Shown piece after piece: positions 23,355-52,682 of a stretch of 64,000 nt of DNA (within the stretch, counting starts at the first letter, position 1; each line of letters starts with the position of its first letter). Location: contig OZ025801.1 in the NCBI GenBank assembly GCA_964019425.1, positions 1 to 64,000 on the forward strand, given 5' to 3'. The notes under the pieces are model-generated. The model was not told the DNA's origin. It did no database searches and was given only the letters and a program-made list of their open reading frames with translations. A program made the translations under genes and the position numbers. This DNA comes from Flectonema sp. DT1601. Lineage: Eukaryota.

Positions 23355-23387
<33 letters not shown>

Positions 23388-23640: not shown

Positions 23641-23675
<35 letters not shown>
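21080..23675. repeat. AT-rich minisatellite, about 19 units of roughly 110-150 bp
   Basis: Recurring AAACAATGTTATCATTGTTT, TCGACTATGTCGA and CGTCCTGGTCA(A/G)GACG, separated by variable A and T tracts. Confidence 0.92.
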
Positions 23676-23678
<3 letters not shown>

Positions 23679-28698: not shown

Positions 28699-29374
28699 TA
28701 ATTGCGCTTGCCTTCCATATCATGCACCTGACGAATGAAATGTATAGATGAAACTAATTAAACTAATAAAGCAAACTAATGGATCAAACTAGCAAACACA
28801 GAGAAGCTGTCTAAGACAGTTTATTGCGTTGGGGTAGTGGCTGGTGCCCGTTTCGATTCGGCGTGACACCGGCCGGAGGGATGGAGGGTGGGTTTTTCTT
28901 TTACTTTTAGTGGTGAGATGTGACAAAGTGGCAAATAACTGCAAAAGTAAAAGAATAAATTTATTAGAATCCAAATAATTTAAACTATAACAAAAAGACA
29001 GCTTAGCACCAAAGCTCCATGATTTTTTACTGCTAACAGAATTAGCAGCCGAACACCTAGATTTCAAAACCAGATTGCCTACTAAAAGGAGTCCTTTCTC
29101 ATCCTATTATACCTTATCTATCTTTCCTAAACCTGCTTATGCGCAGAAATCCAGCATCTTTTCCTTGGGCAAAAACCTTTCTTACTTTTCTAGTAAGAAA
29201 GTTTTCTGCCTAAATTCTGGTGCATTTTGGATGGCTGCGCAATTACTGAAATAAATTTGCAATAATTGCGCTTGCCTTCCATATCATGCACCTGACGAAT
29301 GAAATGTATAGATGAAACTAATTAAACTAATAAAGCAAACTAATGGATCAAACTAGCAAACACAGAGAAGCTGT

Positions 29375-32300
29375 CTAAGACAGTTTATTGCGTTGGGGTA
29401 GTGGCTGGTGCCCGTTTCGATTCGGCGTGACACCGGCTCCGCCACCCCGTCGCGAGTTGAAGAAGCCCCCGAGCGCAAGTTCGACCTTCGCCCTCGTTTC
29501 CGAGGTGATAGGCTCCCTCGAGGGGATGTCTGCGGGGTTATACTTTGTGCTCACCCATTGAAGTGTGAAAGAACATTTTAAACGAAGTAATTTTTCTATT
29601 GAAACTAAAATAAATGAATTAAGAGAGTGTGAGCGAGCACACATCTTCTTTCTGAAAGATCCGCAGACCGTGGTGTTATCGACCCAGATGGACAAATGGT
29701 CCGCTCTAGTAATAGCGCTCAAAGTCTTCCCTAAAGCATCTGCCTCGAGAATGTTAATATGGCGTTCTTCGCCTAAAGGCCATTGGCCACCTAAGATTTC
29801 CATCTCTGCAGAGTCCCAAACAATCACACCTCCCCAGCCCTTGAGCGAGGCATCGATAAAGACCTCTGCAGTTTTACCGACCTTCTCAACTGGTAAAATA
29901 GTACGTCCCTTCTGGACTTGGTGCATCCACGCGCGCAGCTCAGCTTTCACTGAGTTTGGTAAAGAAATCTTTTCTGAAACAAGAATTGCTCCTCGATTGA
30001 GCTTATTAGTAAGTCTTCGCAGAAACTTCATTGCAAACCAGAACCTACCAGGAGGGACCCCCGATATGGCACTAGCATGCAAAAGCCTGCCCGAAAGAGA
30101 TTCTGCTGCTGCTGCAGTTATGCAGTTCAAATTGCAAGCTTTTATTCTTTTAGTAATCTTTTCACCTAAAGAAACTTCCCTAGTAGGATGTGAGAAAAAT
30201 GCACCTAAAAATTCGTATTCAGTGCCTAAATTAACAGTATCTTGTACCTTCCAGGTTGCGTTGCAAAGCCTGGCAAACTCGTCCATTCTATTCGTGGCCT
30301 CTCGGACCCTTTCTTTATCCCCATAAATCCTTATATTATCTATCCACCAATCAATTTTCACTTGCTTTTCTGCAAATTCTGGCCTAACAAACAAGGGGTC
30401 GCCAGAAACTACTGCAGTAATCGTATTCATAATTTCGGGCGCACAAACGTGCCCCATCGGTAATCTGGTTAGCGCGAACCAGTCCCCCGAGGCATCCTCG
30501 AAGGTAAAAAGAGGTCTCGAAGCCTCTGGAATAAGTATCTGATAAAAACCTGTTTTAAAGTCTCTTAAAGAAGCTACTTCTGAGTGCACTGCACCTAAGT
30601 ACTTCGAGATATGTTGTAAAGGTACAAACGGTTCATATCCAGTCTCGTAAATCTTCTCGTTCTCTTCCTTAGTCCACAAGATAAAGCGCTGCCTATCTCC
30701 TGTCTCCCTTTCCTCGAAAACTGTGAAAGGCACGTTCCTGGACTTAGAAAGTTCCTTCTTAAAAGGTACTGCAATTTTACACCTTACTAACTCCTTAGAG
30801 TGAAGACAGGAAAGCTTTGTTTTTTGAAAAGAATTTTGGGTTTTTTTATCTTTCAGGTGGGGAGTGGTGGAATGGTTGGAGGGAGAACGGGATGAGTGTC
30901 TCGAAGGGTCGTTAGGGAGCGCCGGTTCGAGTCTGGGAGGGGGATTCTTCTCTCTATTTTTACCTAAACTTTTCAGATTTCCTGCATTTTTAAATGTCAA
31001 GTCCCAAGTCTCGTTGAAACGCTCTAGGACGCTCGGAAGCATCCGGTCTTTGATTATTTGAATATCCATCGGCTGTACGATCGCTGCGTGTAGTGGGGCC
31101 GACTTCTCGTAGCTCGTACTCGGTATCCTTGTTGACTTAGCCCTGTGTGTGAACTGAGCCCCCATTTTTCTTATCAGTTTTATAGGAACCTCGTCACTAA
31201 GGATGTCTTCAGAGCCCGAGCGGTGGCGATTGCGTTCCCTCCGTATCTTATTGTTGTATTTGAGATCGCCGACGTCGTCGAGTGCTTTGCAAGGCGGCTT
31301 ATCAGCTCTTCCTTCAGGTCGCATCCGCTCGCGAGGAGCTCTAGTAAGGTGCTTATTGCGCCTCTTTTTATCGAGTGGGCTGTATAGGTTTTCATAATAC
31401 TGTCTTCCTTCCACTCTTTTACTAGTCGTGATGTGTCCCACGGATGTAAGGTTTCGAATTCTTCTATTTCCGTCAGTCCATCCGCTATTTCCCCCACGAG
31501 ATCCCCGACCAACACGGCCCATCTGCTCGGGTAGAACGGATTGCCTCTGCGGCCCTTTGGTGTGGTTGCCCAATCTATTATTATTTCTTCCTTTGAAATT
31601 AGTATAAACTGCTCCCTTGCTAGTCCTGCTGTCTCTCCCCATCGTGCGGCTGCCTTCCAGCTGATGAGCATCGCGACTCTCGTCCTCGTACATTGTTTCA
31701 TCGCCCATCCTACTAAGTGCTCCCTCTTCATGGGGATTGCTTGCTGAGTTGGAATGTTCCCTCCTGCTGCTCTGATTGCTGCTGCTAAGGTTAAAAGTGG
31801 CTTGCTGTCCATTCCCATCTTCCCCATCAGGGCTGACAGGTGCTTTGAATATGTAAGAAGCGCCGATTCCGCTGCTCCCGTTGCCATCACGAAGAGAACA
31901 GCTGTGTCCCCATTGACTTGTAGGTTCTGGCTGCCTGCCCAATTTATCAGTCTCTTCCAGAGCTGCTTCCTGCTGGAAGTGGTCTCCTTTGCCCACATCT
32001 TCTCCATTGTCTCTCCAAGTCTTTCTGTTGCTTGGAGCACTCCCACAGAGTCTTCCTTCTGATTTCTGCTCAGGGCAGAGGGCTCCACTATGTCTAGAAG
32101 GACATTTTGGATCACCCCTGAAGAGTCCCTTCTGGGTTCTTCCTCCACTTTTTCTACTAAGTCTGTCTTTTCCAGATTTTTGAGATTCTTTGAATTTTCC
32201 CTGACTGGACTTAGAGATGAGATACTTTTTGAAATTGCCATCCCAGGCTTTCCCGGGGTATACCTGCGCATTAGACCAATTACTTTGAGATTTCTCTGAA

Positions 32301-32416
32301 TTTTCAGTGTTCCTCTTTCTATTTCTACCTGCTTCTTTACCTTCAATATTTGTAGCAAGTTTCCCGAGGCTCTTGCTCTCCTCACTGGCAGTGTGGGGCT
32401 GGACGTCGCCAGTCAT
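29375..32416 (-). CDS. Reverse transcriptase / RNase H (DIRS group)
   Basis: RT motifs RDFKTGFYQ, RLPMG, WIDN and EFLG. RNase H motifs FIDAS..GWG, HINILEA, VDNTT and NPADIPSR. The first ~410 codons overlap the YR ORF, so the true start is uncertain. Confidence 0.9.
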   Translation of the reverse strand: MTGDVQPHTASEESKSLGKLATNIEGKEAGRNRKRNTENSEKSQSNWSNAQVYPGKAWDGNFKKYLISKSSQGKFKESQKSGKDRLSRKSGGRTQKGLFRGDPKCPSRHSGALCPEQKSEGRLCGSAPSNRKTWRDNGEDVGKGDHFQQEAALEETDKLGRQPEPTSQWGHSCSLRDGNGSSGIGASYIFKAPVSPDGEDGNGQQATFNLSSSNQSSRREHSNSASNPHEEGALSRMGDETMYEDESRDAHQLEGSRTMGRDSRTSKGAVYTNFKGRNNNRLGNHTKGPQRQSVLPEQMGRVGRGSRGGNSGWTDGNRRIRNLTSVGHITTSKRVEGRQYYENLYSPLDKKRRNKHLTRAPRERMRPEGRADKPPCKALDDVGDLKYNNKIRRERNRHRSGSEDILSDEVPIKLIRKMGAQFTHRAKSTRIPSTSYEKSAPLHAAIVQPMDIQIIKDRMLPSVLERFNETWDLTFKNAGNLKSLGKNREKNPPPRLEPALPNDPSRHSSRSPSNHSTTPHLKDKKTQNSFQKTKLSCLHSKELVRCKIAVPFKKELSKSRNVPFTVFEERETGDRQRFILWTKEENEKIYETGYEPFVPLQHISKYLGAVHSEVASLRDFKTGFYQILIPEASRPLFTFEDASGDWFALTRLPMGHVCAPEIMNTITAVVSGDPLFVRPEFAEKQVKIDWWIDNIRIYGDKERVREATNRMDEFARLCNATWKVQDTVNLGTEYEFLGAFFSHPTREVSLGEKITKRIKACNLNCITAAAAESLSGRLLHASAISGVPPGRFWFAMKFLRRLTNKLNRGAILVSEKISLPNSVKAELRAWMHQVQKGRTILPVEKVGKTAEVFIDASLKGWGGVIVWDSAEMEILGGQWPLGEERHINILEADALGKTLSAITRADHLSIWVDNTTVCGSFRKKMCARSHSLNSFILVSIEKLLRLKCSFTLQWVSTKYNPADIPSREPITSETRAKVELALGGFFNSRRGGGAGVTPNRNGHQPLPQRNKLS
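31180..32385 (-). CDS. Tyrosine recombinase
   Basis: Catalytic pattern R (AARWGE), HxxR (HSIKRG), H (AKH) and Y (TIRY). The start is uncertain (the ORF track uses GTG). Confidence 0.9.
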   Translation of the reverse strand: MRRARASGNLLQILKVKKQVEIERGTLKIQRNLKVIGLMRRYTPGKPGMAISKSISSLSPVRENSKNLKNLEKTDLVEKVEEEPRRDSSGVIQNVLLDIVEPSALSRNQKEDSVGVLQATERLGETMEKMWAKETTSSRKQLWKRLINWAGSQNLQVNGDTAVLFVMATGAAESALLTYSKHLSALMGKMGMDSKPLLTLAAAIRAAGGNIPTQQAIPMKREHLVGWAMKQCTRTRVAMLISWKAAARWGETAGLAREQFILISKEEIIIDWATTPKGRRGNPFYPSRWAVLVGDLVGEIADGLTEIEEFETLHPWDTSRLVKEWKEDSIMKTYTAHSIKRGAISTLLELLASGCDLKEELISRLAKHSTTSAISNTTIRYGGNAIATARALKTSLVTRFL

Positions 32417-33477
32417 TGTCCCCCAGCCCTTCCGTTTCCCTGTCCTTGCTGGAACGTCCTACGGAATGGAACATATCCTCCTTTTCTTCCTTTTGTACTT
32501 GCACTGCTTGTAAGGTTTCTGGTAATTGCTTTCTTCTTTGCCATAAGTACTGCATTAGCCTTCTGTAATGGATCATTAGCCTCTGTTTTAAGCTGATTGA
32601 TTAGATCCGACCTCTTTGTCCCATTCATGCAATACATATTCTGAATCTTCAAATCTCTCAACAAGTTATTTCCTAATGAGACTGCATTCTCGTTCTTGTC
32701 CCATCCTGGGATGAATTCCATAGCTAATATGAATCTTTCTAAGTTATTGTAATAATTCTCTAGCAACTCAACCCCTGGTCCAGGGGGAACTCTTCCTACG
32801 AATTTTGATTCCAGTTTAATCAGCAAGATCTCTGTCAGCCGTTGTTCCATGATTGGAATCCAGTCTAAAACACTATTCGTGTCTAATACAGCAGACTGCA
32901 TCTGTGAATCTTCTTCTCCACCTTGCTGAGTACCTTGCTGAGGCGCTGCAGGAAGCACTGGTGGTGGTACAGGCTGTGGCCCCTGCGAGGTCTGCTGATG
33001 TGGTGTATTTTGAAAATGCTGCTGGAGCTGTTGCTGTAATTGTTGCTGAAGCTGCTGCTGAAACTGCAGTTGAGACTGTTGAAACTGCTGGAACTGATCT
33101 TTAATTCCAATTACTTCTTGTTTGAGGATGTTTGTCTCATGCGAACGCACCTCGCTCTCTTGTCGAACTGCAGCATCCCGCTTCTGACTTTCTTCCCTCG
33201 TGCGTGCTATCACGGCAGCTGCGATTCCTGGTTCGATTTCACTCACATTAGGAGCTTCTAATACATCTATTTTGATACATCCTGTTTGTCCCAGTTCCCT
33301 AACAGTTTTACTCATAGCTTGGTTATAAATTCCACCCTTGCCTGCTCTGTCAATCTTCACTATTCCTTCTAATGGTAAATCATTAACGAAGAAGGCCCTA
33401 ACTTTGTGGCCCATTGTGCTTGCTAGAAATCCTTCAATCTCATCATCATTCATGCACTTAATAGTTGCAGTAGTCAT
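32413..33477 (-). CDS. Gag-like protein (354 aa, Gln-rich coiled coil)
   Basis: First ORF of the element. Its ATG (MTTATIKC) lies at the inner edge of repeat A1, 45 nt after a splice acceptor. The gag label is positional only. Confidence 0.75.
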   Translation of the reverse strand: MTTATIKCMNDDEIEGFLASTMGHKVRAFFVNDLPLEGIVKIDRAGKGGIYNQAMSKTVRELGQTGCIKIDVLEAPNVSEIEPGIAAAVIARTREESQKRDAAVRQESEVRSHETNILKQEVIGIKDQFQQFQQSQLQFQQQLQQQLQQQLQQHFQNTPHQQTSQGPQPVPPPVLPAAPQQGTQQGGEEDSQMQSAVLDTNSVLDWIPIMEQRLTEILLIKLESKFVGRVPPGPGVELLENYYNNLERFILAMEFIPGWDKNENAVSLGNNLLRDLKIQNMYCMNGTKRSDLINQLKTEANDPLQKANAVLMAKKKAITRNLTSSASTKGRKGGYVPFRRTFQQGQGNGRAGGQ

Positions 33478-33522
33478 TTTTCTTTTACTTTTAGTGGTGA
33501 GATGTGACAAAGTGGCAAATAA

Positions 33523-33545
33523 CTGCAAAAGTAAAAGAATAAATT
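33523..33545 (-). promoter_or_regulatory. Polypyrimidine tract + CAG splice acceptor for the gag mRNA
   Basis: Minus strand ATTTATTCTTTTACTTTTGCAG|TTATTTGCC. Copy 3 has an SL exon joined at exactly this AG. Confidence 0.8.
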
Positions 33546-33846
33546 TATTAGAATCCAAATAATTTAAACTATAACAAAAAGACAACTTAGCACCAAAACT
33601 CCATGATTTTTTACTGCTAACTGAATTAGCAGCCGAACACCTAGATTTCAAAACCAGATTGCCTACTAAAAGGAGTCCTTTCTCATCCTATTATACCTTA
33701 TCTATCTTTCCTAAACCTGCTTATGCGCAGAAATCCAGCATCTTTTCCTTGGGCAAAAACCTTTCTTACTTTTCTAGTAAGAAAGTTTTCTGCCTAAATT
33801 CTGGTGCATTTTGGATGGCTGCGCAATTACTGAAATAAATTTGCAA

Positions 33847-35060: not shown

Positions 35061-35736
35061 TAATTGCGCTTGCCTTCCATATCATGCACCTGACGAATGG
35101 AATGTATAGATGAAACTAATTAAACTAATAAAACAAACTAATGGATCAAACTAGCAAACACAGAGAAGCTGTCTAAGACAGTTTATTGCGTTGGGGTAGT
35201 GGCTGGTGCCCGTTTCGATTCGGCGTGACACCGGCCGGAGGGATGGAGGGTGGGTTTTTCTTTTACTTTTAGTGGTGAGATGTGACAAAGTGGCAAATAA
35301 CTGCAAAAGTAAAAGAATAAATTTATTAGAATCCAAATTATTTAAACTATAACAAAAAGACAGCTTAGCACCAAAGCTCCATGATTGTTTACTGCTAACT
35401 GAATTAGCAGCCGAACACCTAGATTTCAAAACCAGATTGCCTACTAAAAGGAGTCCTTTCTCATCCTATTATACCTTATCTATCTTTCCTAAACCTGCTT
35501 ATGCGCAGAAATCCAGCATCTTTTCCTTGGGCAAAAACCTTTCTTACTTTTCTAGTAAGAAAGTTTTCTGCCTAAATTCTGGTGCATTTTGGATGGCTGC
35601 GCAATTACTGAAATAAATTTGCAATAATTGCGCTTGCCTTCCATATCATGCACCTGACGAATGGAATGTATAGATGAAACTAATTAAACTAATAAAACAA
35701 ACTAATGGATCAAACTAGCAAACACAGAGAAGCTGT

Positions 35737-38700
35737 CTAAGACAGTTTATTGCGTTGGGGTAGTGGCTGGTGCCCGTTTCGATTCGGCGTGACACCGGCT
35801 CCGCCACCCCGTCGCGAGTTGAAGAAGCCCCCGAGCGCAAGTTCGACCTTCGCCCTCGTCTCCGAGGTGATAGGCTCCCTCGAGGGGATGTCTGCGGGGT
35901 TATACTTTGTGCTCACCCATTGAAGTGTGAAAGAACATTTTAAACGAAGTAATTTTTCTATTGAAACTAAAATAAATGAATTAAGAGAGTGTGAGCGAGC
36001 ACACATCTTCTTTCTGAACGATCCGCAGACCGTGGTGTTATCGACCCAGATGGACAAATGGTCCGCTCTAGTAATAGCGCTCAAAGTCTTCCCTAAGGCA
36101 TCTGCCTCGAGAATGTTAATATGGCGTTCTTCGCCTAAAGGCCATTGGCCACCTAAGATTTCCATCTCTGCAGAGTCCCAAACAATCACACCTCCCCAGC
36201 CCTTGAGCGAGGCATCGATAAAGACCTCTGCAGTTTTACCGACCTTCTCATCTGGTAAAATAGTACGTCCCTTCTGGACTTGGTGCATCCACGCGCGCAG
36301 CTCAGCTTTCACTGAGTTTGGTAAAGAAATCTTTTCCGAAACAAGAATTGCTCCTCGATTGAGCTTATTAGTAAGTCTTCGCAGAAACTTCATTGCAAAC
36401 CAGAACCTACCAGGAGGGACCCCCGATATGGCACTAGCATGCAAAAGCCTGCCCGAAAGAGATTCTGCTGCTGCTGCAGTTATGCAGTTCAAATTGCAAG
36501 CTTTTATTCTTTTAGTAATCTTTTCACCTAAAGAAACTTCCCTAGTAGGATGTGAGAAAAATGCACCTAAAAATTCGTATTCAGTGCCTAAATTAACAGT
36601 ATCTTGTACCTTCCAGGTTGCGTTGCAAAGCCTGGCAAACTCGTCCATTCTATTCGTGGCCTCTCGGACCCTTTCTTTATCCCCATAAATCCTTATATTA
36701 TCTATCCACCAATCAATTTTCACTTGCTTTTCTGCAAATTCTGGCCTAACAAACAAGGGGTCGCCAGAAACTACTGCAGTAATCGTATTCATAATTTCGG
36801 GCGCACAAACGTGCCCCATCGGTAATCTGGTTAGCGCGAACCAGTCCCCCGAGGCATCCTCGAAGGTAAAAAGAGGTCTCGAAGCCTCTGGAATAAGTAT
36901 CTGATAAAAACCTGTTTTAAAGTCTCTTAAAGAAGCTACTTCTGAGTGCACTGCACCTAAGTACTTCGAGATATGTTGTAAAGGTACAAACGGTTCATAT
37001 CCAGTCTCGTAAATCTTCTCGTTCTCTTCCTTAGTCCACAAGATAAAGCGCTGCCTATCTCCTGTCTCCCTTTCCTCGAAAACTGTGAAAGGCACGTTCC
37101 TGGACTTAGAAAGTTCCTTCTTAAAAGGTACTGCAATTTTACACCTTACTAACTCCTTAGAGTGAAGACAGGAAAGCTTTGTTTTTTGAAAAGAATTTTG
37201 GGTTTTTTTATCTTTCAGGTGGGGAGTGGTGGAATGGTTGGAGGGAGAACGGGATGAGTGTCTCGAAGGGTCGTTAGGGAGCGCCGGTTCGAGTCTGGGA
37301 GGGGGATTCTTCTCTCTATTTTTACCTAAACTTTTCAGATTTCCTGCATTTTTAAATGTCAAGTCCCAAGTCTCGTTGAAACGCTCTAGGACGCTCGGAA
37401 GCATCCGGTCTTTGATTATTTGAATATCCATCGGCTGTACGATCGCTGCGTGTAATGGGGCCGACTTCTCGTAGCTCGTACTCGGTATCCTTGTTGACTT
37501 AGCCCTGTGTGTGAACTGAGCCCCCATTCTTCTTATCAGTTTTATAGGAACTTCGTCACTAAGGATGTCTTCAGGGCCCGAGCGGTGGCGATTGCGTTCC
37601 CTCCGTATCTTATTGTTGTATTTGAGATCGCCGACGTCGTCGAGTGCTTTGCAAGGCGGCTTATCAGCTCTTCCTTCAGGTCGCATCCGCTCGCGAGGAG
37701 CTCTAGTAAGGTGCTTATTGCGCCTCTTTTTATCGAGTGGGCTGTATAGGTTTTCATAATACTGTCTTCCTTCCACTCTTTTACTAGTCGTGATGTGTCC
37801 CACGGATGTAAGGTTTCGAATTCTTCTATTTCCGTCAGTCCATCCGCTATTTCCTCCACGAGATCCCCGACCAACACGGCCCATCTGCTCGGGTAGAACG
37901 GATTGCCTCTGCGGCCCTTTGGTGTGGTTGCCCAATCTATTATTATTTCTTCCTTTGAAATTAGTATAAACTGCTCCCTTGCTAGTCCTGCTGTCTCTCC
38001 CCATCGTGCGGCTGCCTTCCAGCTGATGAGCATCGCGACTCTCGTCCTCGTACATTGTTTCATCGCCCATCCTACTAAGTGCTCCCTCTTCATGGGGATT
38101 GCTTGCTGAGTTGGAATGTTCCCTCCTGCTGCTCTGATTGCTGCTGCTAAGGTTAAAAGTGGCTTGCTGTCCATTCCCATCTTCCCCATCAGGGCTGACA
38201 GGTGCTTTGAATATGTAAGAAGCGCCGATTCCGCTGCTCCCGTTGCCATCACGAAGAGAACAGCTGTGTCCCCATTGACTTGTAGGTTCTGGCTGCCTGC
38301 CCAATTTATCAGTCTCTTCCAGAGCTGCTTCCTGCTGGAAGTGGTCTCCTTTGCCCACATCTTCTCCATTGTCTCTCCAAGTCTTTCTGTTGCTTGGAGC
38401 ACTCCCACAGAGTCTTCCTTCTGATTTCTGCTCAGGGCAGAGGGCTCCACTATGTCTAGAAGGACATTTTGGATCACCCCTGAAGAGTCCCTTCTGGGTT
38501 CTTCCTCCACTTTTTCTACTAAGTCTGTCTTTTCCAGATTTTTGAGATTCTTTGAATTTTCCCTGACTGGACTTAGAGATGAGATACTTTTTGAAATTGC
38601 CATCCCAGGCTTTCCCGGGGTATACATGCGCATTAGACCAATTACTTTGAGATTTCTCTGAATTTTCAGTGTTCCTCTTTCTATTTCTACCTGCTTCTTT

Positions 38701-38778
38701 ACCTTCAATATTTGTAGCAAGTTTCCCGAGGCTCTTGCTCTCCTCACTGGCAGTGTAGGGCTGGACGTCGCCAGTCAT
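35737..38778 (-). CDS. RT/RNase H, copy 2
   Basis: Intact and near-identical to 29375-32416. Confidence 0.9.
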   Translation of the reverse strand: MTGDVQPYTASEESKSLGKLATNIEGKEAGRNRKRNTENSEKSQSNWSNAHVYPGKAWDGNFKKYLISKSSQGKFKESQKSGKDRLSRKSGGRTQKGLFRGDPKCPSRHSGALCPEQKSEGRLCGSAPSNRKTWRDNGEDVGKGDHFQQEAALEETDKLGRQPEPTSQWGHSCSLRDGNGSSGIGASYIFKAPVSPDGEDGNGQQATFNLSSSNQSSRREHSNSASNPHEEGALSRMGDETMYEDESRDAHQLEGSRTMGRDSRTSKGAVYTNFKGRNNNRLGNHTKGPQRQSVLPEQMGRVGRGSRGGNSGWTDGNRRIRNLTSVGHITTSKRVEGRQYYENLYSPLDKKRRNKHLTRAPRERMRPEGRADKPPCKALDDVGDLKYNNKIRRERNRHRSGPEDILSDEVPIKLIRRMGAQFTHRAKSTRIPSTSYEKSAPLHAAIVQPMDIQIIKDRMLPSVLERFNETWDLTFKNAGNLKSLGKNREKNPPPRLEPALPNDPSRHSSRSPSNHSTTPHLKDKKTQNSFQKTKLSCLHSKELVRCKIAVPFKKELSKSRNVPFTVFEERETGDRQRFILWTKEENEKIYETGYEPFVPLQHISKYLGAVHSEVASLRDFKTGFYQILIPEASRPLFTFEDASGDWFALTRLPMGHVCAPEIMNTITAVVSGDPLFVRPEFAEKQVKIDWWIDNIRIYGDKERVREATNRMDEFARLCNATWKVQDTVNLGTEYEFLGAFFSHPTREVSLGEKITKRIKACNLNCITAAAAESLSGRLLHASAISGVPPGRFWFAMKFLRRLTNKLNRGAILVSEKISLPNSVKAELRAWMHQVQKGRTILPDEKVGKTAEVFIDASLKGWGGVIVWDSAEMEILGGQWPLGEERHINILEADALGKTLSAITRADHLSIWVDNTTVCGSFRKKMCARSHSLNSFILVSIEKLLRLKCSFTLQWVSTKYNPADIPSREPITSETRAKVELALGGFFNSRRGGGAGVTPNRNGHQPLPQRNKLS
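37542..38747 (-). CDS. Tyrosine recombinase, copy 2
   Basis: R-HxxR-H-Y residues intact. Confidence 0.9.
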   Translation of the reverse strand: MRRARASGNLLQILKVKKQVEIERGTLKIQRNLKVIGLMRMYTPGKPGMAISKSISSLSPVRENSKNLKNLEKTDLVEKVEEEPRRDSSGVIQNVLLDIVEPSALSRNQKEDSVGVLQATERLGETMEKMWAKETTSSRKQLWKRLINWAGSQNLQVNGDTAVLFVMATGAAESALLTYSKHLSALMGKMGMDSKPLLTLAAAIRAAGGNIPTQQAIPMKREHLVGWAMKQCTRTRVAMLISWKAAARWGETAGLAREQFILISKEEIIIDWATTPKGRRGNPFYPSRWAVLVGDLVEEIADGLTEIEEFETLHPWDTSRLVKEWKEDSIMKTYTAHSIKRGAISTLLELLASGCDLKEELISRLAKHSTTSAISNTTIRYGGNAIATARALKTSLVTKFL

Positions 38779-39839
38779 TGTCCCCCAGCCCTTCCGTTTC
38801 CCTGTCCTCGCTGGAACGTCCTACGGAATGGAACATATCCTCCTTTTCTTCCTTTTGTACTTGCACTGCTTGTAAGGTTTCTGGTAATTGCTTTCTTCTT
38901 TGCCATAAGTACTGCATTAGCCTTCTGTAATGGATCATTAGCCTCTGTTTTAAGCTGATTGATTAGATCCGACCTCTTTGTCCCATTCATGCAATACATA
39001 TTTTGAATCTTCAAATCTCTCAACAAGTTATTTCCTAATGAGACTGCATTCTCGTTCTTGTCCCATCCTGGGATGAATTCCATAGCTAATATGAATCTTT
39101 CTAAGTTATTGTAATAATTCTCTAGCAACTCAACCCCTGGTCCAGGGGGAACTCTTCCTACGAATTTTGATTCCAGTTTAATCAGCAAGACCTCTGTCAG
39201 CCGTTGTTCCATGATTGGAATCCAGTCTAAAACACTATTCGTGTCTAATACAGCAGACTGCATCTGTGAATCTTCTTCTCCACCTTGCTGAGTACCTTGC
39301 TGAGGCGCTGCAGGAAGCACTGGTGGTGGTACAGGCTGTGGCCCCTGCGAGGTCTGCTGATGTGGTGTATTTTGAAAATGCTGCTGGAGCTGTTGCTGTA
39401 ATTGTTGCTGAAGCTGCTGCTGAAACTGCAGTTGAGACTGTTGAAACTGCTGGAACTGATCTTTAATTCCAATTACTTCTTGTTTGAGGATGTTTGTCTC
39501 ATGCGAACGCACCTCGCTCTCTTGTCGAACTGCAGCATCCCGCTTCTGACTTTCTTCCCTCGTGCGTGCTATCACGGCAGCTGCGATTCCTGGTTCGATT
39601 TCACTCACATTAGGAGCTTCTAATACATCTATTTTGATACATCCTGTTTGTCCCAGTTCCCTAACAGTTTTACTCATAGCTTGGTTATAAATTCCACCCT
39701 TGCCTGCTCTGTCAATCTTCACTATTCCTTCTAATGGTAAATCAATAACGAAGAAGGCCCTAACCTTGTGGCCCATTGTGCTTGCTAGAAATCCTTCAAT
39801 CTCATCATCATTCATGCACTTAATAGTTGCAGTAGTCAT
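38775..39839 (-). CDS. Gag-like protein, copy 2
   Basis: Near-identical to copy 1. Confidence 0.75.
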   Translation of the reverse strand: MTTATIKCMNDDEIEGFLASTMGHKVRAFFVIDLPLEGIVKIDRAGKGGIYNQAMSKTVRELGQTGCIKIDVLEAPNVSEIEPGIAAAVIARTREESQKRDAAVRQESEVRSHETNILKQEVIGIKDQFQQFQQSQLQFQQQLQQQLQQQLQQHFQNTPHQQTSQGPQPVPPPVLPAAPQQGTQQGGEEDSQMQSAVLDTNSVLDWIPIMEQRLTEVLLIKLESKFVGRVPPGPGVELLENYYNNLERFILAMEFIPGWDKNENAVSLGNNLLRDLKIQNMYCMNGTKRSDLINQLKTEANDPLQKANAVLMAKKKAITRNLTSSASTKGRKGGYVPFRRTFQRGQGNGRAGGQ

Positions 39840-40208
39840 TTTTCTTTTACTTTTAGTGGTGAGATGTGACAAAGTGGCAAATAACTGCAAAAGTAAAAGA
39901 ATAAATTTATTAGAATCCAAATTATTTAAACTATAACAAAAAGACAGCTTAGCACCAAAGCTCCATGATTGTTTACTGCTAACTGAATTAGCAGCCGAAC
40001 ACCTAGATTTCAAAACCAGATTGCCTACTAAAAGGAGTCCTTTCTCATCCTATTATACCTTATCTATCTTTCCTAAACCTGCTTATGCGCAGAAATCCAG
40101 CATCTTTTCCTTGGGCAAAAACCTTTCTTACTTTTCTAGTAAGAAAGTTTTCTGCCTAAATTCTGGTGCATTTTGGATGGCTGCGCAATTACTGAAATAA
40201 ATTTGCAA

Positions 40209-42632
40209 AAACTGTAGCTTTAGAATCGTTGGTTAACCTTAAAAAGCAGTTACCCCAGGTAATTAGAAATTGTGTGGCTTTTAGAACTACCAGCCAGAAC
40301 TAGCAGAAATGCTTGCTTGCGGGTAGGGAAGTAAGGGAAAAAGCCTGCAAGCACCCGGGGTTCCCACGTGATCACTCACCGCAGTACTAACCAGGCCTGC
40401 TGGTGCTTAACTTCCCAAATCGGGCGGGATGGGGTGCATTCACCAGAGTATGGCCGCAGGCAATTGCAGATTTTTTTATTTCTTAGGGGTTTGACCCACC
40501 ATGAAAAAATTCGCAGAAAAGATTTATTAGCAGAGTATTGCTGGGGCTCGGTCTTAGCTTTAACATTAACACAGGAGCGGCGAAAATTACGTCTTTCGGG
40601 GGGAAAAGCCAAAAGAAAAATATATTAAATAATATAAATTAAATTTTCTACATAAAAATAGGATAAGCACGGTAAGTCTCGGTTCATTTTCTCTGCTTGG
40701 CAAACAGAGGTGAACGGGCAATAAAAAAACCCCAAAAGAAGAGAATTCTTCCTAAGAGGTTGGCTAAATATTCTAAGCAAGCTTAGATATTGAGACTGTA
40801 CCAATAAAGTACAGAAACTGTAGCTTTAGAATCGTTGGTTAACCTTAAAAAGCAGTTACCCCAGGTAATTAGAAATTGTGTGGCTTTTAGAACTACCAGC
40901 CAGAACTAGCAGAAATGCTTGCTTGCGGGTAGGGAAGTAAGGGAAAAAGCCTGCAAGCACCCGGGGTTCCCACGTGATCACTCACCGCAGTACTAACCAG
41001 GCCTGCTGGTGCTTAACTTCCCAAATCGGGCGGGATGGGGTGCATTCACCAGAGTATGGCCGCAGGCAATTGCAGATTTTTTTATTTCTTAGGGGTTTGA
41101 CCCACCATGAAAAAATTCGCAGAAAAGATTTATTAGCAGAGTATTGCTGGGGCTCGGTCTTAGCTTTAACATTAACACAGGAGCGGCGAAAATTACGTCT
41201 TTCGGGGGGAAAAGCCAAAAGAAAAATATATTAAATAATATAAATTAAATTTTCTACATAAAAATAGGATAAGCACGGTAAGTCTCGGTTCATTTTCTCT
41301 GCTTGGCAAACAGAGGTGAACGGGCAATAAAAAAACCCCAAAAGAAGAGAATTCTTCCTAAGAGGTTGGCTAAATATTCTAAGCAAGCTTAGATATTGAG
41401 ACTGTACCAATAAAGTACAGAAACTGTAGCTTTAGAATCGTTGGTTAACCTTAAAAAGCAGTTACCCCAGGTAATTAGAAATTGTGTGGCTTTTAGAACT
41501 ACCAGCCAGAACTAGCAGAAATGCTTGCTTGCGGGTAGGGAAGTAAGGGAAAAAGCCTGCAAGCACCCGGGGTTCCCACGTGATCACTCACCGCAGTACT
41601 AACCAGGCCTGCTGGTGCTTAACTTCCCAAATCGGGCGGGATGGGGTGCATTCACCAGAGTATGGCCGCAGGCAATTGCAGATTTTTTTATTTCTTAGGG
41701 GTTTGACCCACCATGAAAGAATTCGCAGAAAAGATTTATTAGCAGAGTATTGCTGGGGCTCGGTCTTAGCTTTAACATTAACACAGGAGCGGCGAAAATT
41801 ACGTCTTTCGGGGGGAAAAGCCAAAAGAAAAATATATTAAATAATATAAATTAAATTTTCTACATAAAAATAGGATAAGCACGGTAAGTCTCGGTTCATT
41901 TTCTCTGCTTGGCAAACAGAGGTGAACGGGCAATAAAAAAACCCCAAAAGAAGAGAATTCTTCCTAAGAGGTTGGCTAAATATTCTAAGCAAGCTTAGAT
42001 ATTGAGACTGTACCAATAAAGTACAGAAACTGTAGCTTTAGAATCGTTGGTTAACCTTAAAAAGCAGTTACCCCAGGTAATTAGAAATTGTGTGGCTTTT
42101 AGAACTACCAGCCAGAACTAGCAGAAATGCTTGCTTGCGGGTAGGGAAGTAAGGGAAAAAGCCTGCAAGCACCCGGGGTTCCCACGTGATCACTCACCGC
42201 AGTACTAACCAGGCCTGCTGGTGCTTAACTTCCCAAATCGGGCGGGATGGGGTGCATTCACCAGAGTATGGCCGCAGGCAATTGCAGATTTTTTTATTTC
42301 TTAGGGGTTTGACCCACCATGAAAAAATTCGCAGAAAAGATTTATTAGCAGAGTATTGCTGGGGCTCGGTCTTAGCTTTAACATTAACACAGGAGCGGCG
42401 AAAATTACGTCTTTCGGGGGGAAAAGCCAAAAGAAAAATATATTAAATAATATAAATTAAATTTTCTACATAAAAATAGGATAAGCACGGTAAGTCTCGG
42501 TTCATTTTCTCTGCTTGGCAAACAGAGGTGAACGGGCAATAAAAAAACCCCAAAAGAAGAGAATTCTTCCTAAGAGGTTGGCTAAATATTCTAAGCAAGC
42601 TTAGATATTGAGACTGTACCAATAAAGTACAG
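40209..42632 (-). repeat. SL + 5S array type A, block 4 (four 5S genes)
   Basis: 606-bp period. First 5S gene at 40342-40461. Confidence 0.97.
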
Positions 42633-43308
42633 TAATTGCGCTCGCCTTCCATATCATGCACCTGACGAATGAAATGTATAGATGAAACTAATTAAACTAA
42701 TAAAACAAACTAATGGATCAAACTAGCAAACACAGAGAAGCTGTCTAAGACAGTTTATTGCGTTGGGGTAGTGGCTGGTGCCCGTTTCGATTCGGCGTGA
42801 CACCGGCCGGAGGGATGGAGGGTGGGTTTTTCTTTTACTTTTAGTGGTGAGATGTGACAAAGTGGCAAATAACTGCAAAAGTAAAAGAATAAATTTATTA
42901 GAATCCAAATTATTTAAACTATAACAAAAAGACAACTTAGCACCAAAACTCCATGATTTTTTACTGCTAACTGAATTAGCAGCCGAACGCCTAGATTTCA
43001 AAACCAGATTGCCTACTAAAAGGAGTCCCTTCCCATCCTATTATACCTTATCTATCTTTCCTAAACCTGCTTATGCGCAGAAATCCAGCATCTTTTCCTT
43101 GGGCAAAAACCTTTCTTACTTTTCTAGTAAGAAAGTTTTCTGCCTAAATTCTGGTGCATCTTGGATGGCTGCGCAATTACTGAAATAAATTTGCAATAAT
43201 TGCGCTCGCCTTCCATATCATGCACCTGACGAATGAAATGTATAGATGAAACTAATTAAACTAATAAAACAAACTAATGGATCAAACTAGCAAACACAGA
43301 GAAGCTGT

Positions 43309-46300
43309 CTAAGACAGTTTATTGCGTTGGGGTAGTGGCTGGTGCCCGTTTCGATTCGGCGTGACACCGGCTCCGCCACCCCGTCGCGAGTTGAAGAAGC
43401 CCCCGAGCGCAAGTTCGACCTTCGCCCTCGTCTCCGAGGTGATAGGCTCCCTCGAGGGGATGTCTGCGGGGTTATACTTTGTGCTCACCCATTGAAGTGT
43501 GAAAGAACATTTTAAACGAAGTAATTTTTCTATTGAAACTAAAATAAATGAATTAAGAGAGTGTGAGCGAGCACACATCTTCTTTCTGAACGATCCGCAG
43601 ACCGTGGTGTTATCGACCCAGATGGACAAATGGTCCGCTCTAGTAATAGCGCTCAAAGTCTTCCCTAAGGCATCTGCCTCGAGAATGTTAATATGGCGTT
43701 CTTCGCCTAAAGGCCATTGGCCACCTAAGATTTCCATCTCTGCAGAGTCCCAAACAATCACACCTCCCCAGCCCTTGAGCGAGGCATCGATAAAGACCTC
43801 TGCAGTTTTACCGACCTTCTCATCTGGTAAGATAGTACGTCCCTTCTGGACTTGGTGCATCCACGCGCGCAGCTCAGCTTTCACTGAGTTTGGTAAAGAA
43901 ATCTTTTCCGAAACAAGAATTGCTCCTCGATTGAGCTTATTAGTAAGTCTTCGCAGAAACTTCATTGCAAACCAGAACCTACCAGGAGGGACTCCTGATA
44001 TGGCACTAGCATGCAAAAGCCTGCCCGAAAGAGATTCTGCTGCTGCTGCAGTTATGCAGTTCAAATTGCAAGCTTTTATTCTTTTAGTAATCTTTTCACC
44101 TAAAGAAACTTCCCTAGTAGGATGTGAGAAAAATGCACCTAAAAATTCGTATTCAGTGCCTAAATTAACAGTATCTTGTACCTTCCAGGTTGCGTTGCAA
44201 AGCCTGGCAAACTCGTCCATTCTATTCGTGGCCTCTCGGACCCTTTCTTTATCCCCATAAATCCTTATATTATCTATCCACCAATCAATTTTCACTTGCT
44301 TTTCTGCAGATTCTGGCCTAACAAACAAGGGGTCGCCAGAAACTACTGCAGTAATCGTATTCATAATTTCGGGCGCACAAACGTGCCCCATCGGTAATCT
44401 GGTTAGCGCGAACCAGTCCCCCGAGGCATCCTCGAAGGTAAAAAGAGGTCTCGAAGCCTCTGGAATAAGTATCTGATAAAAACCTGTTTTAAAGTCTCTT
44501 AAAGAAGCTACTTCTGAGTGCACTGCACCTAAGTACTTCGAGATATGTTGTAAAGGTACAAACGGTTCATATCCAGTCTCGTAAATCTTCTCGTTCTCTT
44601 CCTTAGTCCACAAGATAAAGCGCTGCCTATCTCCTGTCTCCCTTTCCTCGAAAACTGTGAAAGGCACGTTCCTGGACTTAGAAAGTTCCTTCTTAAAAGG
44701 TACTGCAATTTTACACCTTACTAACTCCTTAGAGTGAAGACAGGAAAGCTTTGTTTTTTGAAAAGAATTTTGGGTTTTTTTATCTTTCAGGTGGGGAGTG
44801 GTGGAATGGTTGGAGGGAGAACGGGATGAGTGTCTCGAAGGGTCGTTAGGGAGCGCCGGTTCGAGTCTGGGAGGGGGATTCTTCTCTCTATTTTTACCTA
44901 AACTTTTCAGATTTCCTGCATTTTTAAATGTCAAGTCCCAAGTCTCGTTGAAACGCTCTAGGACGCTCGGAAGCATCTGGTCTTTGATTATTTGAATATC
45001 CATCGGCTGTACGATCGCTGCGTGTAATGGGGCCGACTTCTCGTAGCTCGTACTCGGTATCCTTGTTGACTTAGCCCTGTGTGTGAACTGAGCCCCCATT
45101 TTTCTTATCAGTTTTATAGGAACTTCGTCACTAAGGATGTCTTCAGGGCCCGAGCGGTGGCGATTGCGTTCCCTCCGTATCTTATTGTTGTATTTGAGAT
45201 CGCCGACGTCGTCGAGTGCTTTGCAAGGCGGCTTATCAGCTCTTCCTTCAGGTCGCATCCGCTCGCGAGGAGCTCTAGTAAGGTGCTTATTGCGCCTCTT
45301 TTTATCGAGTGGGCTGTATAGGTTTTCATAATACTGTCTTCCTTCCACTCTTTTACTAGTCGTGATGTGTCCCACGGATGTAAGGTTTCGAATTCTTCTA
45401 TTTCCGTCAGTCCATCCGCTATTTCCTCCACGAGATCCCCGACCAACACGGCCCATCTGCTCGGGTAGAACGGATTGCCTCTGCGGCCCTTTGGTGTGGT
45501 TGCCCAATCTATTATTATTTCTTCCTTTGAAATTAGTATAAACTGCTCCCTTGCTAGTCCTGCTGTCTCTCCCCATCGTGCGGCTGCCTTCCAGCTGATG
45601 AGCATCGCGACTCTCGTCCTCGTACATTGTTTCATCGCCCATCCTACTAAGTGCTCCCTCTTCATGGGGATTGCTTGCTGAGTTGGAATGTTCCCTCCTG
45701 CTGCTCTGATTGCTGCTGCTAAGGTTAAAAGTGGCTTGCTGTCCATTCCCATCTTCCCCATCAGGGCTGACAGGTGCTTTGAATATGTAAGAAGCGCCGA
45801 TTCCGCTGCTCCCGTTGCCATCACGAAGAGAACAGCTGTGTCCCCATTGACTTGTAGGTTCTGGCTGCCTGCCCAATTTATCAGTCTCTTCCAGAGCTGC
45901 TTCCTGCTGGAAGTGGTCTCCTTTGCCCACATCTTCTCCATTGTCTCTCCAAGTCTTTCTGTTGCTTGGAGCACTCCCACAGAGTCTTCCTTCTGATTTC
46001 TGCTCAGGGCAGAGGGCTCCACTATGTCTAGAAGGACATTTTGGATCACCCCTGAAGAGTCCCTTCTGGGTTCTTCCTCCACTTTTTCTACTAAGTCTGT
46101 CTTTTCCAGATTTTTGAGATTCTTTGAATTTTCCCTGACTAGACTTAGAGATGAGATACTTTTTGAAATTGCCATCCCAGGCTTTCCCGGGGTATACCTG
46201 CGCATTAGACCAATTACTTTGAGATTTCTCTGAATTTTCAGTGTTCCTCTTTCTATTTCTACCTGCTTCTTTACCTTCAATATTTGTAGCAAGTTTCCCA

Positions 46301-46350
46301 AGGCTCTTGCTCTCCTCACTGGCAGTGTAGGGCTGGACGTCGCCAGTCAT
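43309..46350 (-). CDS. RT/RNase H, copy 3
   Basis: Intact and near-identical to the other copies. Confidence 0.9.
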   Translation of the reverse strand: MTGDVQPYTASEESKSLGKLATNIEGKEAGRNRKRNTENSEKSQSNWSNAQVYPGKAWDGNFKKYLISKSSQGKFKESQKSGKDRLSRKSGGRTQKGLFRGDPKCPSRHSGALCPEQKSEGRLCGSAPSNRKTWRDNGEDVGKGDHFQQEAALEETDKLGRQPEPTSQWGHSCSLRDGNGSSGIGASYIFKAPVSPDGEDGNGQQATFNLSSSNQSSRREHSNSASNPHEEGALSRMGDETMYEDESRDAHQLEGSRTMGRDSRTSKGAVYTNFKGRNNNRLGNHTKGPQRQSVLPEQMGRVGRGSRGGNSGWTDGNRRIRNLTSVGHITTSKRVEGRQYYENLYSPLDKKRRNKHLTRAPRERMRPEGRADKPPCKALDDVGDLKYNNKIRRERNRHRSGPEDILSDEVPIKLIRKMGAQFTHRAKSTRIPSTSYEKSAPLHAAIVQPMDIQIIKDQMLPSVLERFNETWDLTFKNAGNLKSLGKNREKNPPPRLEPALPNDPSRHSSRSPSNHSTTPHLKDKKTQNSFQKTKLSCLHSKELVRCKIAVPFKKELSKSRNVPFTVFEERETGDRQRFILWTKEENEKIYETGYEPFVPLQHISKYLGAVHSEVASLRDFKTGFYQILIPEASRPLFTFEDASGDWFALTRLPMGHVCAPEIMNTITAVVSGDPLFVRPESAEKQVKIDWWIDNIRIYGDKERVREATNRMDEFARLCNATWKVQDTVNLGTEYEFLGAFFSHPTREVSLGEKITKRIKACNLNCITAAAAESLSGRLLHASAISGVPPGRFWFAMKFLRRLTNKLNRGAILVSEKISLPNSVKAELRAWMHQVQKGRTILPDEKVGKTAEVFIDASLKGWGGVIVWDSAEMEILGGQWPLGEERHINILEADALGKTLSAITRADHLSIWVDNTTVCGSFRKKMCARSHSLNSFILVSIEKLLRLKCSFTLQWVSTKYNPADIPSREPITSETRAKVELALGGFFNSRRGGGAGVTPNRNGHQPLPQRNKLS
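45114..46319 (-). CDS. Tyrosine recombinase, copy 3
   Basis: Catalytic residues intact. Confidence 0.9.
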   Translation of the reverse strand: MRRARALGNLLQILKVKKQVEIERGTLKIQRNLKVIGLMRRYTPGKPGMAISKSISSLSLVRENSKNLKNLEKTDLVEKVEEEPRRDSSGVIQNVLLDIVEPSALSRNQKEDSVGVLQATERLGETMEKMWAKETTSSRKQLWKRLINWAGSQNLQVNGDTAVLFVMATGAAESALLTYSKHLSALMGKMGMDSKPLLTLAAAIRAAGGNIPTQQAIPMKREHLVGWAMKQCTRTRVAMLISWKAAARWGETAGLAREQFILISKEEIIIDWATTPKGRRGNPFYPSRWAVLVGDLVEEIADGLTEIEEFETLHPWDTSRLVKEWKEDSIMKTYTAHSIKRGAISTLLELLASGCDLKEELISRLAKHSTTSAISNTTIRYGGNAIATARALKTSLVTKFL

Positions 46351-47393
46351 TGTCCCCCAGCCCTTCCGTTTCCCTGTCCTCGCTGGAACGTCCTACGGAA
46401 TGGAACATATCCTCCTTTTCTTCCTTTTGTACTTGCACTGCTTGTAAGGTTTCTGGTAATTGCTTTCTTCTTTGCCATAAGTACTGCATTAGCCTTCTGT
46501 AATGGATCATTAGCCTCTGTTTTAAGCTGATTGATTAGATCCGACCTCTTTGTCCCATTCATGCAATACATATTCTGAATCTTCAAATCTCTCAACAAGT
46601 TATTTCCTAATGAGACTGCATTCTCGTTCTTGTCCCATCCTGGGATGAATTCCATAGCTAATATGAATCTTTCTAAGTTATTGTAATAATTCTCTAGCAA
46701 CTCAACCCCTGGTCCAGGGGGAACTCTTCCTACGAATTTTGATTCCAGTTTAATCAGCAAGATCTCTGTCAGCCGTTGTTCCATGATTGGAATCCAGTCT
46801 AAAACACTATTCGTGTCTAATACAGCAGACTGCATCTGTGAATCTTCTTCTCCACCTTGATGAGTACCTTGCTGAGGCGCTGCAGGAAGCACTGGTGGTG
46901 GTACAGGCTGTGGCCCCTGTGAGGTCTGCTGATGTGGTGTATTTTGAAAATGCTGCTGGAGCTGTTGCTGTAATTGTTGCTGAAGCTGCTGCTGAAACTG
47001 CAGTTGAGACTGTTGAAACTGCTGGAACTGATCTTTAATTCCAATTACTTCTTGTTTGAGGATGTTTGTCTCATGCGAACGCACCTCGCTCTCTTGTCGA
47101 ACTGCAGCATCCCGCTTCTGACTTTCTTCCCTCGTGCGTGCTATCACGGCAGCTGCGATTCCTGGTTCGATTTCACTCACATTAGGAGCTTCACATCCTG
47201 TTTGTCCCAGTTCCCTAACAGTTTTACTCATAGCTTGGTTATAAATTCCACCCTTGCCTGCTCTGTCAATCTTCACTATTCCTTCTAATGGTAAATCATT
47301 AACGAAGAAGGCCCTAACTTTGTGGCCCATTGTGCTTGCTAGAAATCCTTCAATCTCATCATCATTCATGCACTTAATAGTTGCAGTAGTCAT
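46347..47393 (-). CDS. Gag-like protein, copy 3 (lacks IKIDVL)
   Basis: GQTGC|EAPN here versus GQTGCIKIDVLEAPN in copies 1 and 2. Confidence 0.75.
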   Translation of the reverse strand: MTTATIKCMNDDEIEGFLASTMGHKVRAFFVNDLPLEGIVKIDRAGKGGIYNQAMSKTVRELGQTGCEAPNVSEIEPGIAAAVIARTREESQKRDAAVRQESEVRSHETNILKQEVIGIKDQFQQFQQSQLQFQQQLQQQLQQQLQQHFQNTPHQQTSQGPQPVPPPVLPAAPQQGTHQGGEEDSQMQSAVLDTNSVLDWIPIMEQRLTEILLIKLESKFVGRVPPGPGVELLENYYNNLERFILAMEFIPGWDKNENAVSLGNNLLRDLKIQNMYCMNGTKRSDLINQLKTEANDPLQKANAVLMAKKKAITRNLTSSASTKGRKGGYVPFRRTFQRGQGNGRAGGQ

Positions 47394-47935
47394 TTTTCTT
47401 TTACTTTTAGTGGTGAGATGTGACAAAGTGGCAAATAACAATAAAGTACAGAAACTGTAGCTTTAGAATCGTTGGTTAACCTTAAAAAGGTGCCTACTAA
47501 AAGGAGTCCTTTCTCATCCTATTATACCTTATCTATCTTTCCTAAACCTGCTCATGCACAGAAATCCAGCATCTTTTCCTTGGGCAAAAACCTTTCTTAC
47601 TTTTCTAGTAAGAAAGTTTTCTGCCTAAATTCTGGTGCATTTTGGATGGCTGCGCAATTACTGAAATAAATTTGCAAAAACTGTAGCTTTAGAATCGTTG
47701 GTTAACCTTAAAAAGTAGTTACCCCAGGTGATTAGAAATTACGTGGCTTTTAGAACTACCAGCCAGTACTAACAGAAATGCTTGCTTGCGGGTAGGGAAG
47801 TAAGGGAAAAAGCCTGCAAGCACCCGGGGTTCCCACGTGATCACTCACCGCAGTACTAACCAGGCCTGCTGGTGCTTAACTTCCCAAATCGGGCGGGATG
47901 GGGTGCATTCACCAGAGTATGGCCGCAGGCAATAG

Positions 47936-47946
<11 letters not shown>

Positions 47947-47970
<24 letters not shown>

Positions 47971-48155
47971 GTTACACTCGTCTGTGCTTCCAGACTCTTT
48001 GTTTTTGTTCTTTTCACTTCTTTGTTTTGTCTTTCTTTTATACTTTCTTTTGGTTTAAGTCTGACAAATTGGAAAACACGGGAAACATAGGTAGGCTCCG
48101 CCTGAGGACGTAAGAAGAGCGGCAACGGGAAAAAATAAATGGTCACGCGTCCTTG
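47947..48155 (-). mobile_element. Short poly(A)-tailed retroposon (SINE or extreme 5'-truncated LINE)
   Basis: This unit is 219 bp longer than the others. TSD AGATTTTTTT at 47937 and 48156. T run to 47969 (minus-strand poly(A)). 186-nt body. Confidence 0.85.
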
Positions 48156-52117: not shown

Positions 52118-52682
52118 TAATTGCGCTTGCCTTCCATATCATGCACCTGACGAATGAAATGTATAGATGAAACTAATTAAACTAATAAAACAAACTAATG
52201 GATCAAACTAGCAAACACAGAGAAGCTGTCTAAGACAGTTTATTGCGTTGGGGTAGTGGCTGGTGCCCGTTTCGATTCGGCGTGACACCGGCCGGAGGGA
52301 TGGAGGGTGGGTTTTTCTTTTACTTTTAGTGGTGAGATGTGACAAAGTGGCAAATAACTGCAAAAGTAAAAGAATAAATTTATTAGAATCCAAATTATTT
52401 AAACTATAACAAAAAGACAACTTAGCACCAAAACTCCATGATTTTTTACTGCTAACTGAATTAGCAGCCGAACACCTAGATTTCAAAACCAGATTGCCTA
52501 CTAAAAGGAGTCCTTTCTCATCCTATTATACCTTATCTATCTTTCCTAAACCTGCTTATGCGCAGAAATCCAGCATCTTTTCCTTGGGCAAAAACCTTTC
52601 TTACTTTTCTAGTAAGAAAGTTTTTCTGCCTAAATTCTGGTGCATTCTGGATGGCTGCGCAATTACTGAAATAAATTTGCAA
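52118..52682 (-). mobile_element. Solo split-repeat derivative (A-linker-B, 565 bp) of the YR retrotransposon in an SL exon
   Basis: Same two junctions as the full elements, no internal ORFs. This unit is 603+565 bp. Confidence 0.95.

Follow-up and report, generated by a model that had tools for sequence, protein, structure and literature searches.

A complete SL exon is joined to a splice acceptor of a retrotransposon in the stretch of 64,000 nucleotides analysed here (the window), and the join very probably passed through a spliced RNA. In the window, minus-strand genes for SL RNA and 5S rRNA form a tandem array, in which three full copies of the element, all on the minus strand, have the layout A1 (370 bp)-gag-YR-RT/RH-B1 (175 bp)-A2-19-bp spacer-B2. 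Repeat alignment placed copy 1 at 28699..33846 and copy 2 at 35061..40208, both with a normal A1 that serves for comparison, and copy 3, which carries the SL join, at 42633..47677. Read on the minus strand, copy 3 begins with positions 1-187 of repeat A1 (47491..47677), followed by an extra C (47490), 12 nt of the SL-gene upstream flank, -12 to -1 (47478..47489), the complete 39-nt SL exon (47439..47477), identical to the exon of the array and ending at its donor, and positions 325-370 of repeat A (47393..47438), the 46 nt left after splicing, which end on the A of the gag ATG. Compared with a normal repeat, 137 bp ending in the acceptor AG are missing and 52 bp stand in their place. The original prediction, that a full SL exon with a 12-nt flank and one further base replaces 137 bp at the acceptor, was found to be exact in its letters, which can be observed directly. 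The extra C differs from the array, which has A (603-bp type) or G (606-bp type) at this place, and from the element, which has A. The flank itself is identical in both array types and its type is unreadable, as the discriminating base (-13) is exactly the one replaced by the C. Microhomology amounts to 1 nt at the SL/acceptor join and is absent from the left join (A187/C/flank). A cap-templated origin of the extra C was rejected, since a cap G would read G and not C on the sense strand; a GT-AG intron at the left join was likewise rejected, as there is no GT after A187 and no AG before -12.

The spliced-RNA origin of the join rests on the fact that both breaks are exact splice sites. A random join of an SL unit to repeat A would land on both with a rough chance of (2/603)x(2/370), or 1.8e-5. 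On the donor side, GT directly follows 36 of the 37 full SL exons of the window, the sole exception being the exon inside copy 3. On the acceptor side, the AG at A324 has the best pyrimidine tract (16/20) of the 32 AGs in repeat A, and only 28 of 1000 shuffles reach its score. In unspliced form the acceptor is present six more times: in the A2 of all three copies, in the A1 of copy 1 and of copy 2, and in a solo repeat. These findings bear out the earlier proposals that the join stems from a spliced RNA that was copied back into DNA and that it locates the acceptor of the element; expression of the element, which had also been claimed, holds for some copy at some time, as deduced from DNA, and no wider. 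Of the features by which SL-marked retrocopies are recognized, copy 3 shows a complete SL at a splice acceptor in DNA, and lacks a flush SL +1 end with a poly(A) remnant, as 12 nt and the C precede the exon and no A tail remains. The SL join is a singleton, present in one copy of one assembly. Neither join of copy 3 was found in any of eight contig sets, from 8 of 15 sequencing runs of other studies, an absence that carries no weight as contigs drop rare variants, and the exact SL-acceptor join had no match in metagenome contigs. Contigs of two of these studies (X1 and X2) bridge the region in unspliced form, which indicates that this form is the common state in relatives.

The array contains 40 5S genes. 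Its SL RNA was identified by its length, its arrangement in an array, the linkage to 5S, the GT donor and a hairpin across the donor; folding is far above shuffled controls (z -5.65 for the hairpin spanning the donor), and no model matching it was found in Rfam. Two types of array unit, of 603 bp and 606 bp, are identical at 546 of 587 aligned positions, with 35 gaps. The closest named relatives of the element proteins are from Diplonema papillatum, and next from Trypanosoma theileri. D. papillatum has a 39-nt SL linked to 5S, as described in the part of the source available (PMC10161547), and the host is therefore probably a diplonemid, judging from the protein relatives and from the 39-nt SL linked to 5S.

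The element is a VIPER-like tyrosine-recombinase retrotransposon with split direct repeats. In copy 3, B1 (43197..43371) is followed by A2 (42827..43196), in which the unspliced acceptor is present, a C-rich spacer of 19 nt (42808..42826) and B2 (42633..42807). The element is inserted between SL positions 26 and 27, without target duplication, in all 10 junctions (5 left and 5 right). At copy 3, SL exon positions 1-26 of the interrupted gene, of the 603-bp type, form the left junction (47678..47703), and positions 27-39 form the right junction (42620..42632), beyond which the array is of the 606-bp type. A solo A-spacer-B unit resembling SIRE lies at the same SL position (52118..52682, minus strand, from the repeat alignment), and the layout A1...B1 A2 B2 without target duplication, accompanied by a solo A-B form, is the VIPER/TATE plan, with SIRE as the counterpart of the solo form (PMC6681497). 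B1 and B2 are identical in all three copies, with copy-specific variants, as expected if B2 is restored from B1. The spacer at 42808-42826 is partly complementary to a G-rich stretch just before B1 (43372-43390); a similar C-rich spacer follows A2 in two distant metagenomic relatives (L002 and L008), in TATE and in one VIPER record, in the published material available, and may guide a template switch.

Three ORFs are open in copy 3, all on the minus strand: a gag-like ORF of 348 aa (46347..47393), named by its position and without a family match, a tyrosine recombinase ORF of 363 aa (45114..46205), nested in another frame of the RT ORF, and an RT/RNase H ORF of 1013 aa (43309..46350). Across the three copies the sizes are 348-354, 363 and 1013 aa; the gag of copy 3 has an 18-bp in-frame deletion at 47193 relative to copies 1 and 2. 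VIPER-like elements are described, in the available part of the source, as having a gag-like protein of >300 aa, a YR of >250 aa and an RT/RH of >600 aa, with YR overlapping RT/RH (PMC6681497), and all three copies agree with these sizes and with the overlap, the gag being assigned by position alone. The 363-aa ORF is a tyrosine recombinase as judged from its predicted fold and conserved catalytic residues: the structure model (pLDDT 79.6) resembles Cre (E 3.7e-7, TM 0.55) and R210, K239, H299, R303, H330 and Y343 are kept. PF00589 is matched by 6 of 21 aligned YR relatives and not by the protein of the window itself. Similarly, the 1013-aa ORF alone had no Pfam match, and its aligned relatives match RT_RNaseH (10/27) and RVT_1 (7/27). 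Its profile matches solved RTs, with 36% to a T. theileri protein, and it is through these relatives and the profile that RT and RNase H, as expected of a VIPER-like element, are recognized; a search for longer RT relatives gave only weak Ty3-type matches. By eye, in the records available, the YR motifs WKxAxRW and HS(I/L)KRGA are those of two C. fasciculata VIPERs and differ from the ones of L. braziliensis TATE. An LTR retrotransposon with a DDE integrase was rejected, as the ends are A and B, there is no duplication and a recombinase is present instead; membership of the CRE/SLACS/CZAR group was rejected because insertion is at 26/27 and not 11/12, and because there is no poly(A) tail.

An intact target sequence is present inside the exon of copy 3, with the crossover between 47452 and 47451 and an inverted repeat at 47459-47447. 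It had been proposed that copy 3 carries a new target for the integrase of the element; the target is indeed intact as sequence and is a candidate target, and the enzyme is a tyrosine recombinase rather than a DDE integrase. A 6-bp core is common to the target and the B-A junction except for its two middle bases, and both product junctions split exactly between these two bases (sites 47452/47451, 43197/43196, 47678/47677 and 42633/42632). Each recombination site lies within a short inverted repeat, and the core mismatch would be unusual if the recombinase needs an identical overlap. As the target and the junctions are fully defined, the recombinase is open to assay.

Copy 3 is, from its flanking sequences, a recombinant between the two array types. 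All classed half-units upstream of it are of the 603 type and all those downstream are of the 606 type, a switch observed directly, whereas inserts other than copy 3 have a single array type on both sides. Within copy 3, A1 and A2 differ at 5 of 187 sites, whereas the 374 corresponding sites of copies 1 and 2 show no difference (Fisher p 0.004); the contrast is weak when B1/B2 is used for comparison (p 0.04-0.06). A1 and A2 of copy 1 differ at 3 sites, at positions 225-262, which implies that A repeats are reshuffled without a splice event too, and not rarely. A crossover predicts A1/A2 discordance in copy 3 alongside identity of B1 and B2, and the array-type switch is independent evidence for a later crossover that regained A2-B2.

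The left break of copy 3 falls between two A residues, 137 nt upstream of the AG. In T. brucei, according to the available part of the source, the distance from poly(A) site to acceptor has a median of 142 nt, half of the values lying at 123-178, and polyadenylation is coupled to the next acceptor and occurs mostly at A followed by A (PMC2936537). Given this distance and the A/A break, the missing 137 bp resemble the stretch that processing discards from a poly(A) site to the next acceptor. By the T. brucei rules, from which the spacing of the host may differ, 7 of 323 break positions in A fit both distance and A/A, and 56 of 323 fit the distance alone. The break at A187 is likely to mark a poly(A) position, making the end of A1(1-187) a candidate poly(A) site, and no A tail remains at the left join.

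Combining these observations, we favour, with somewhat less than even confidence, an origin of copy 3 from cDNA of a fully processed mRNA that was joined tail to head, integrated, and later recombined with another copy. A transcript would have received the SL by trans-splicing at A324 of A1 and its poly(A) tail at about A187 of A2, the latter directed by the A2 copy of this acceptor, giving SL-a-gag-YR-RT-B1-A(1-187), where a is the 46-nt segment. Reverse transcription would have reached the SL end, with no template switch within the 46-nt segment, and the anti-SL end of the cDNA would have paired with an SL gene and copied 12 nt of flank. The flank-extended end would have been joined to the A187 end with one added base, and the recombinase, acting through the B-A junction, would have integrated the molecule at an SL gene of the 603 type. 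Finally, crossing over with another copy, one that lay among units of the 606 type, would have supplied A2-B2 and brought the two array types together. In normal replication, trans-splicing would remove A1(1-324), and A2 could restore A1 through the remaining 46 nt, which would serve as terminal redundancy.

This origin is favoured because it predicts both the A187 break and a short templated flank. Extension onto SL DNA, which had been raised as one option, is made credible by the 39 nt of perfect homology between the anti-SL cDNA end and every neighbouring SL gene, and a flank picked up from an SL gene at the DNA level makes a 5'-extended SL RNA unnecessary. The case is weakened by the poly(A) spacing, which comes from T. 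brucei as no diplonemid value was found, by the requirement for two events and five inferred steps, and by the lack of an A tail at the join. The A1/A2 discordance and the type switch, moreover, fit a later non-homologous join equally well.

Such a join is part of a two-step DNA route, which we consider rather unlikely. Here, a trans-spliced cDNA would cross over with a resident 606-type copy, both in the SL and within the element body, and so convert it to flank-SL-a-gag; a 603-type copy broken at A187 would afterwards be joined to flank -12 by a non-homologous deletion. This route would account for the flank of genomic origin, for the type switch and for the discordance of A1 and A2 without unusual RNA, and a second non-homologous join, removing most of another copy, is indeed present at 13173/13174. 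However, the poly(A)-like position of the break is then left to chance (7/323, or 56/323 by distance), and a second coincidence is needed, in that the other break, out of 600 bp of the unit, lies no more than 12 nt from the start of the exon; a short flank is expected from templated extension but is a coincidence for random deletion. The left join of this route would also have formed without microhomology.

An RNA route appears unlikely. In it, either cis-splicing would connect an intact SL donor to A324 in a read-through transcript of the array, or trans-splicing would use a 5'-extended SL RNA, and RT would then switch onto A187. The original prediction took the 12-nt flank to point to a 5'-extended or read-through SL RNA; this is no longer the leading explanation, as extension on SL DNA accounts for the flank equally. 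Diplonemids are rich in cis-introns (PMC8061765, available in part), and the sections available of a study in T. brucei describe SL RNA precursors with long 3' extensions (bioRxiv 10.64898/2026.10.18.760011), the unit here being just 603 bp; the extensions reported there are, however, 3' and not 5'. Read-through from the nearest SL gene yields no flank, so that two units or a start at -12 would be needed, and the stop of the RNA at -12 is left unexplained. It is very unlikely that the structure of copy 3 is an assembly or library chimera: it is a single copy at the meeting point of two array types, and a 5-kb element with 99% identity is a natural point of mis-joining, but while mis-joining within the element would account for the type switch, a splice-exact join could not arise in this way and would need cDNA in the library. 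Least probable of all is a DNA-only recombination of the SL 3' end with the pyrimidine tract of A, or a recombinase error, falling on the splice sites by chance. In its favour, the 3' end of the SL resembles the pyrimidine tract, and the exon ends in 6 nt identical to the core of the B-A junction. A crossover within this similarity, however, would retain the AG or cost the exon its last bases, whereas the product has the full 39 nt and no AG, and all 10 junctions show the recombinase cutting at 26/27 and not at 39.

As a likely DNA copy of the processed RNA of the element, copy 3 probably marks where that RNA begins and perhaps where it ends. A bolder reading, which we hold to be possible and on balance doubtful, is that copy 3 records both RNA ends, the SL at 46 nt inside A1 and the poly(A) in A2, 137 nt ahead of the corresponding acceptor, and that the split repeats of VIPER and TATE are an adaptation to trans-splicing. 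If so, the short piece after the acceptor would be the terminal redundancy, replication would be possible just for RNA that escapes processing in A2, and every SL-capped cDNA of an SL-targeting element would carry its own target. Copy 3 itself, as read from its sequence, is without an acceptor in A1, and the 12 nt upstream of its inner SL are presumably too little for a promoter, to judge by the SL promoters of kinetoplastids. Progeny of copy 3 would revert if every cycle rebuilds A1 from A2, which fits the singleton status of the join.

An acceptor near the end of repeat A recurs in part of the family. In the available supplements of PMC6681497, scored by eye, a pyrimidine tract with an AG lies ~35-50 nt before the end of A in four of five published VIPER/TATE records, the fifth, from B. 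saltans, being unscored: at 44 nt in TATE, about 36 nt in one VIPER record and about 50 nt in two C. fasciculata VIPERs, in one of which the end of A is inferred. Distant YR relatives with clear A1...B1 A2 B2 repeats were present in metagenome contigs (L002, L008, L019, L021 and L046); in one of them (L021), as in the element of the window, the last base of repeat A is the A of the first ATG. In these five relatives, 15, 60, 116, 348 and 665 of 1000 shuffles reach the acceptor score, so that the acceptor is clearly non-random in just one (15/1000). SIRE, reportedly, can supply a trans-splice acceptor in T. cruzi (Vazquez and colleagues). No SL-like motif was found in any of the 46 related loci scanned, no Rfam match in the 20 of these 46 that were scanned for it, and no terminal A tail in the related metagenomic loci. 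In contigs of three of the other studies (X2, X4 and X5), A adjoins the 5' half of the SL, with 30, 30 and 27 letters, below the threshold of 31 letters, which gives only a hint that SL targeting may recur elsewhere.

Published systems, compared here from the available parts of the papers, share single features with this element. VIPER/SIRE of kinetoplastids is alike in the sizes and the overlap of its three ORFs, gag-like, YR and RT/RH (PMC6681497, PMC12278014), in its A1...B1 A2 B2 repeats without target duplication, with SIRE as a solo A-spacer-B, and in an acceptor-like site near the end of A (PMC6681497 and supplements); in contrast, the element of the window lies strictly at SL 26/27, in a host that is probably a diplonemid, and has one copy with a spliced SL join. 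The terms "spliced" and "target site" do not occur in the main text of PMC6681497. TATE of Leishmania braziliensis is also a site-specific YR retrotransposon, inserted in the telomeric hexamer, with the same repeat layout (PMC2696322, PMC6681497); by eye, in the supplement of PMC6681497, its A also has a pyrimidine tract whose AG lies 44 nt from the end, and its A2 is followed by a C-rich spacer. It differs in its YR motifs, a much longer YR ORF and its target. CRE/SLACS/CZAR likewise use SL genes as a safe multicopy target (PMC5814959, PMC12278014), but are non-LTR elements with a restriction-like endonuclease and a poly(A) tail that insert at SL 11/12, unlike the recombinase and the 26/27 site described here. 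The SL-specific elements named in the available literature are non-LTR and lie at 11/12 (PMC5814959, PMC12278014), and no SL-targeted YR retrotransposon was found in searches of the open-access literature.

An SL-marked cDNA copy as a lone event is of a known kind: in the SL-relict retrocopies of dinoflagellates, a genomic SL at the trans-splice position marks a reverse-transcribed mRNA (PMC5585692, available in part). Copy 3 differs from these in that its SL is preceded by SL-gene flank and by its own repeat, and in being a transposon without poly(A) inside an SL array. DIRS-1, in the part of the study available, has a subgenomic RNA without the ends, these being restored from internal repeats, and free single-stranded, mostly linear cDNA accumulates that could invade homologous DNA (PMC7192593); it differs in its inverted repeats and the lack of trans-splicing, and the split-repeat cycle lies outside that study. 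For split-repeat YR retrotransposons, RNA ends and the replication cycle have been modelled rather than measured. Copy 3 names two exact positions, A324 and A187, and the A324 site recurs in the published VIPER/TATE repeats available.

Other inserts are present in the window. In the unit beside copy 3, a poly(A)-tailed insert of 219 bp (47937-48155, minus strand) with a 10-bp target duplication lies just upstream of a 5S gene; its body has no other copy in the window and it looks like a target-primed insertion of a third element. Two identical LINE-like 3' ends (8884-10337 and 24465-25918, plus strand) with RNase H and a 41-nt A tail are inserted antisense, 3-4 nt into a 5S gene, and are possibly 5S-specific. 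Within 13118-25918, all that remains of a further VIPER copy is the terminal 56 bp of its B repeat with the SL right junction; these abut a 5'-truncated RT frame of 2045 aa (13154-19291, plus strand), followed by ~142-bp tandem repeats and then by a 5S-inserted LINE end. Positions 1-8883 are occupied by 1110 copies of an 8-bp G-rich repeat with 99% identity, satellite or telomere-like, with the G-rich strand on the plus strand and directly joined to a LINE fragment.
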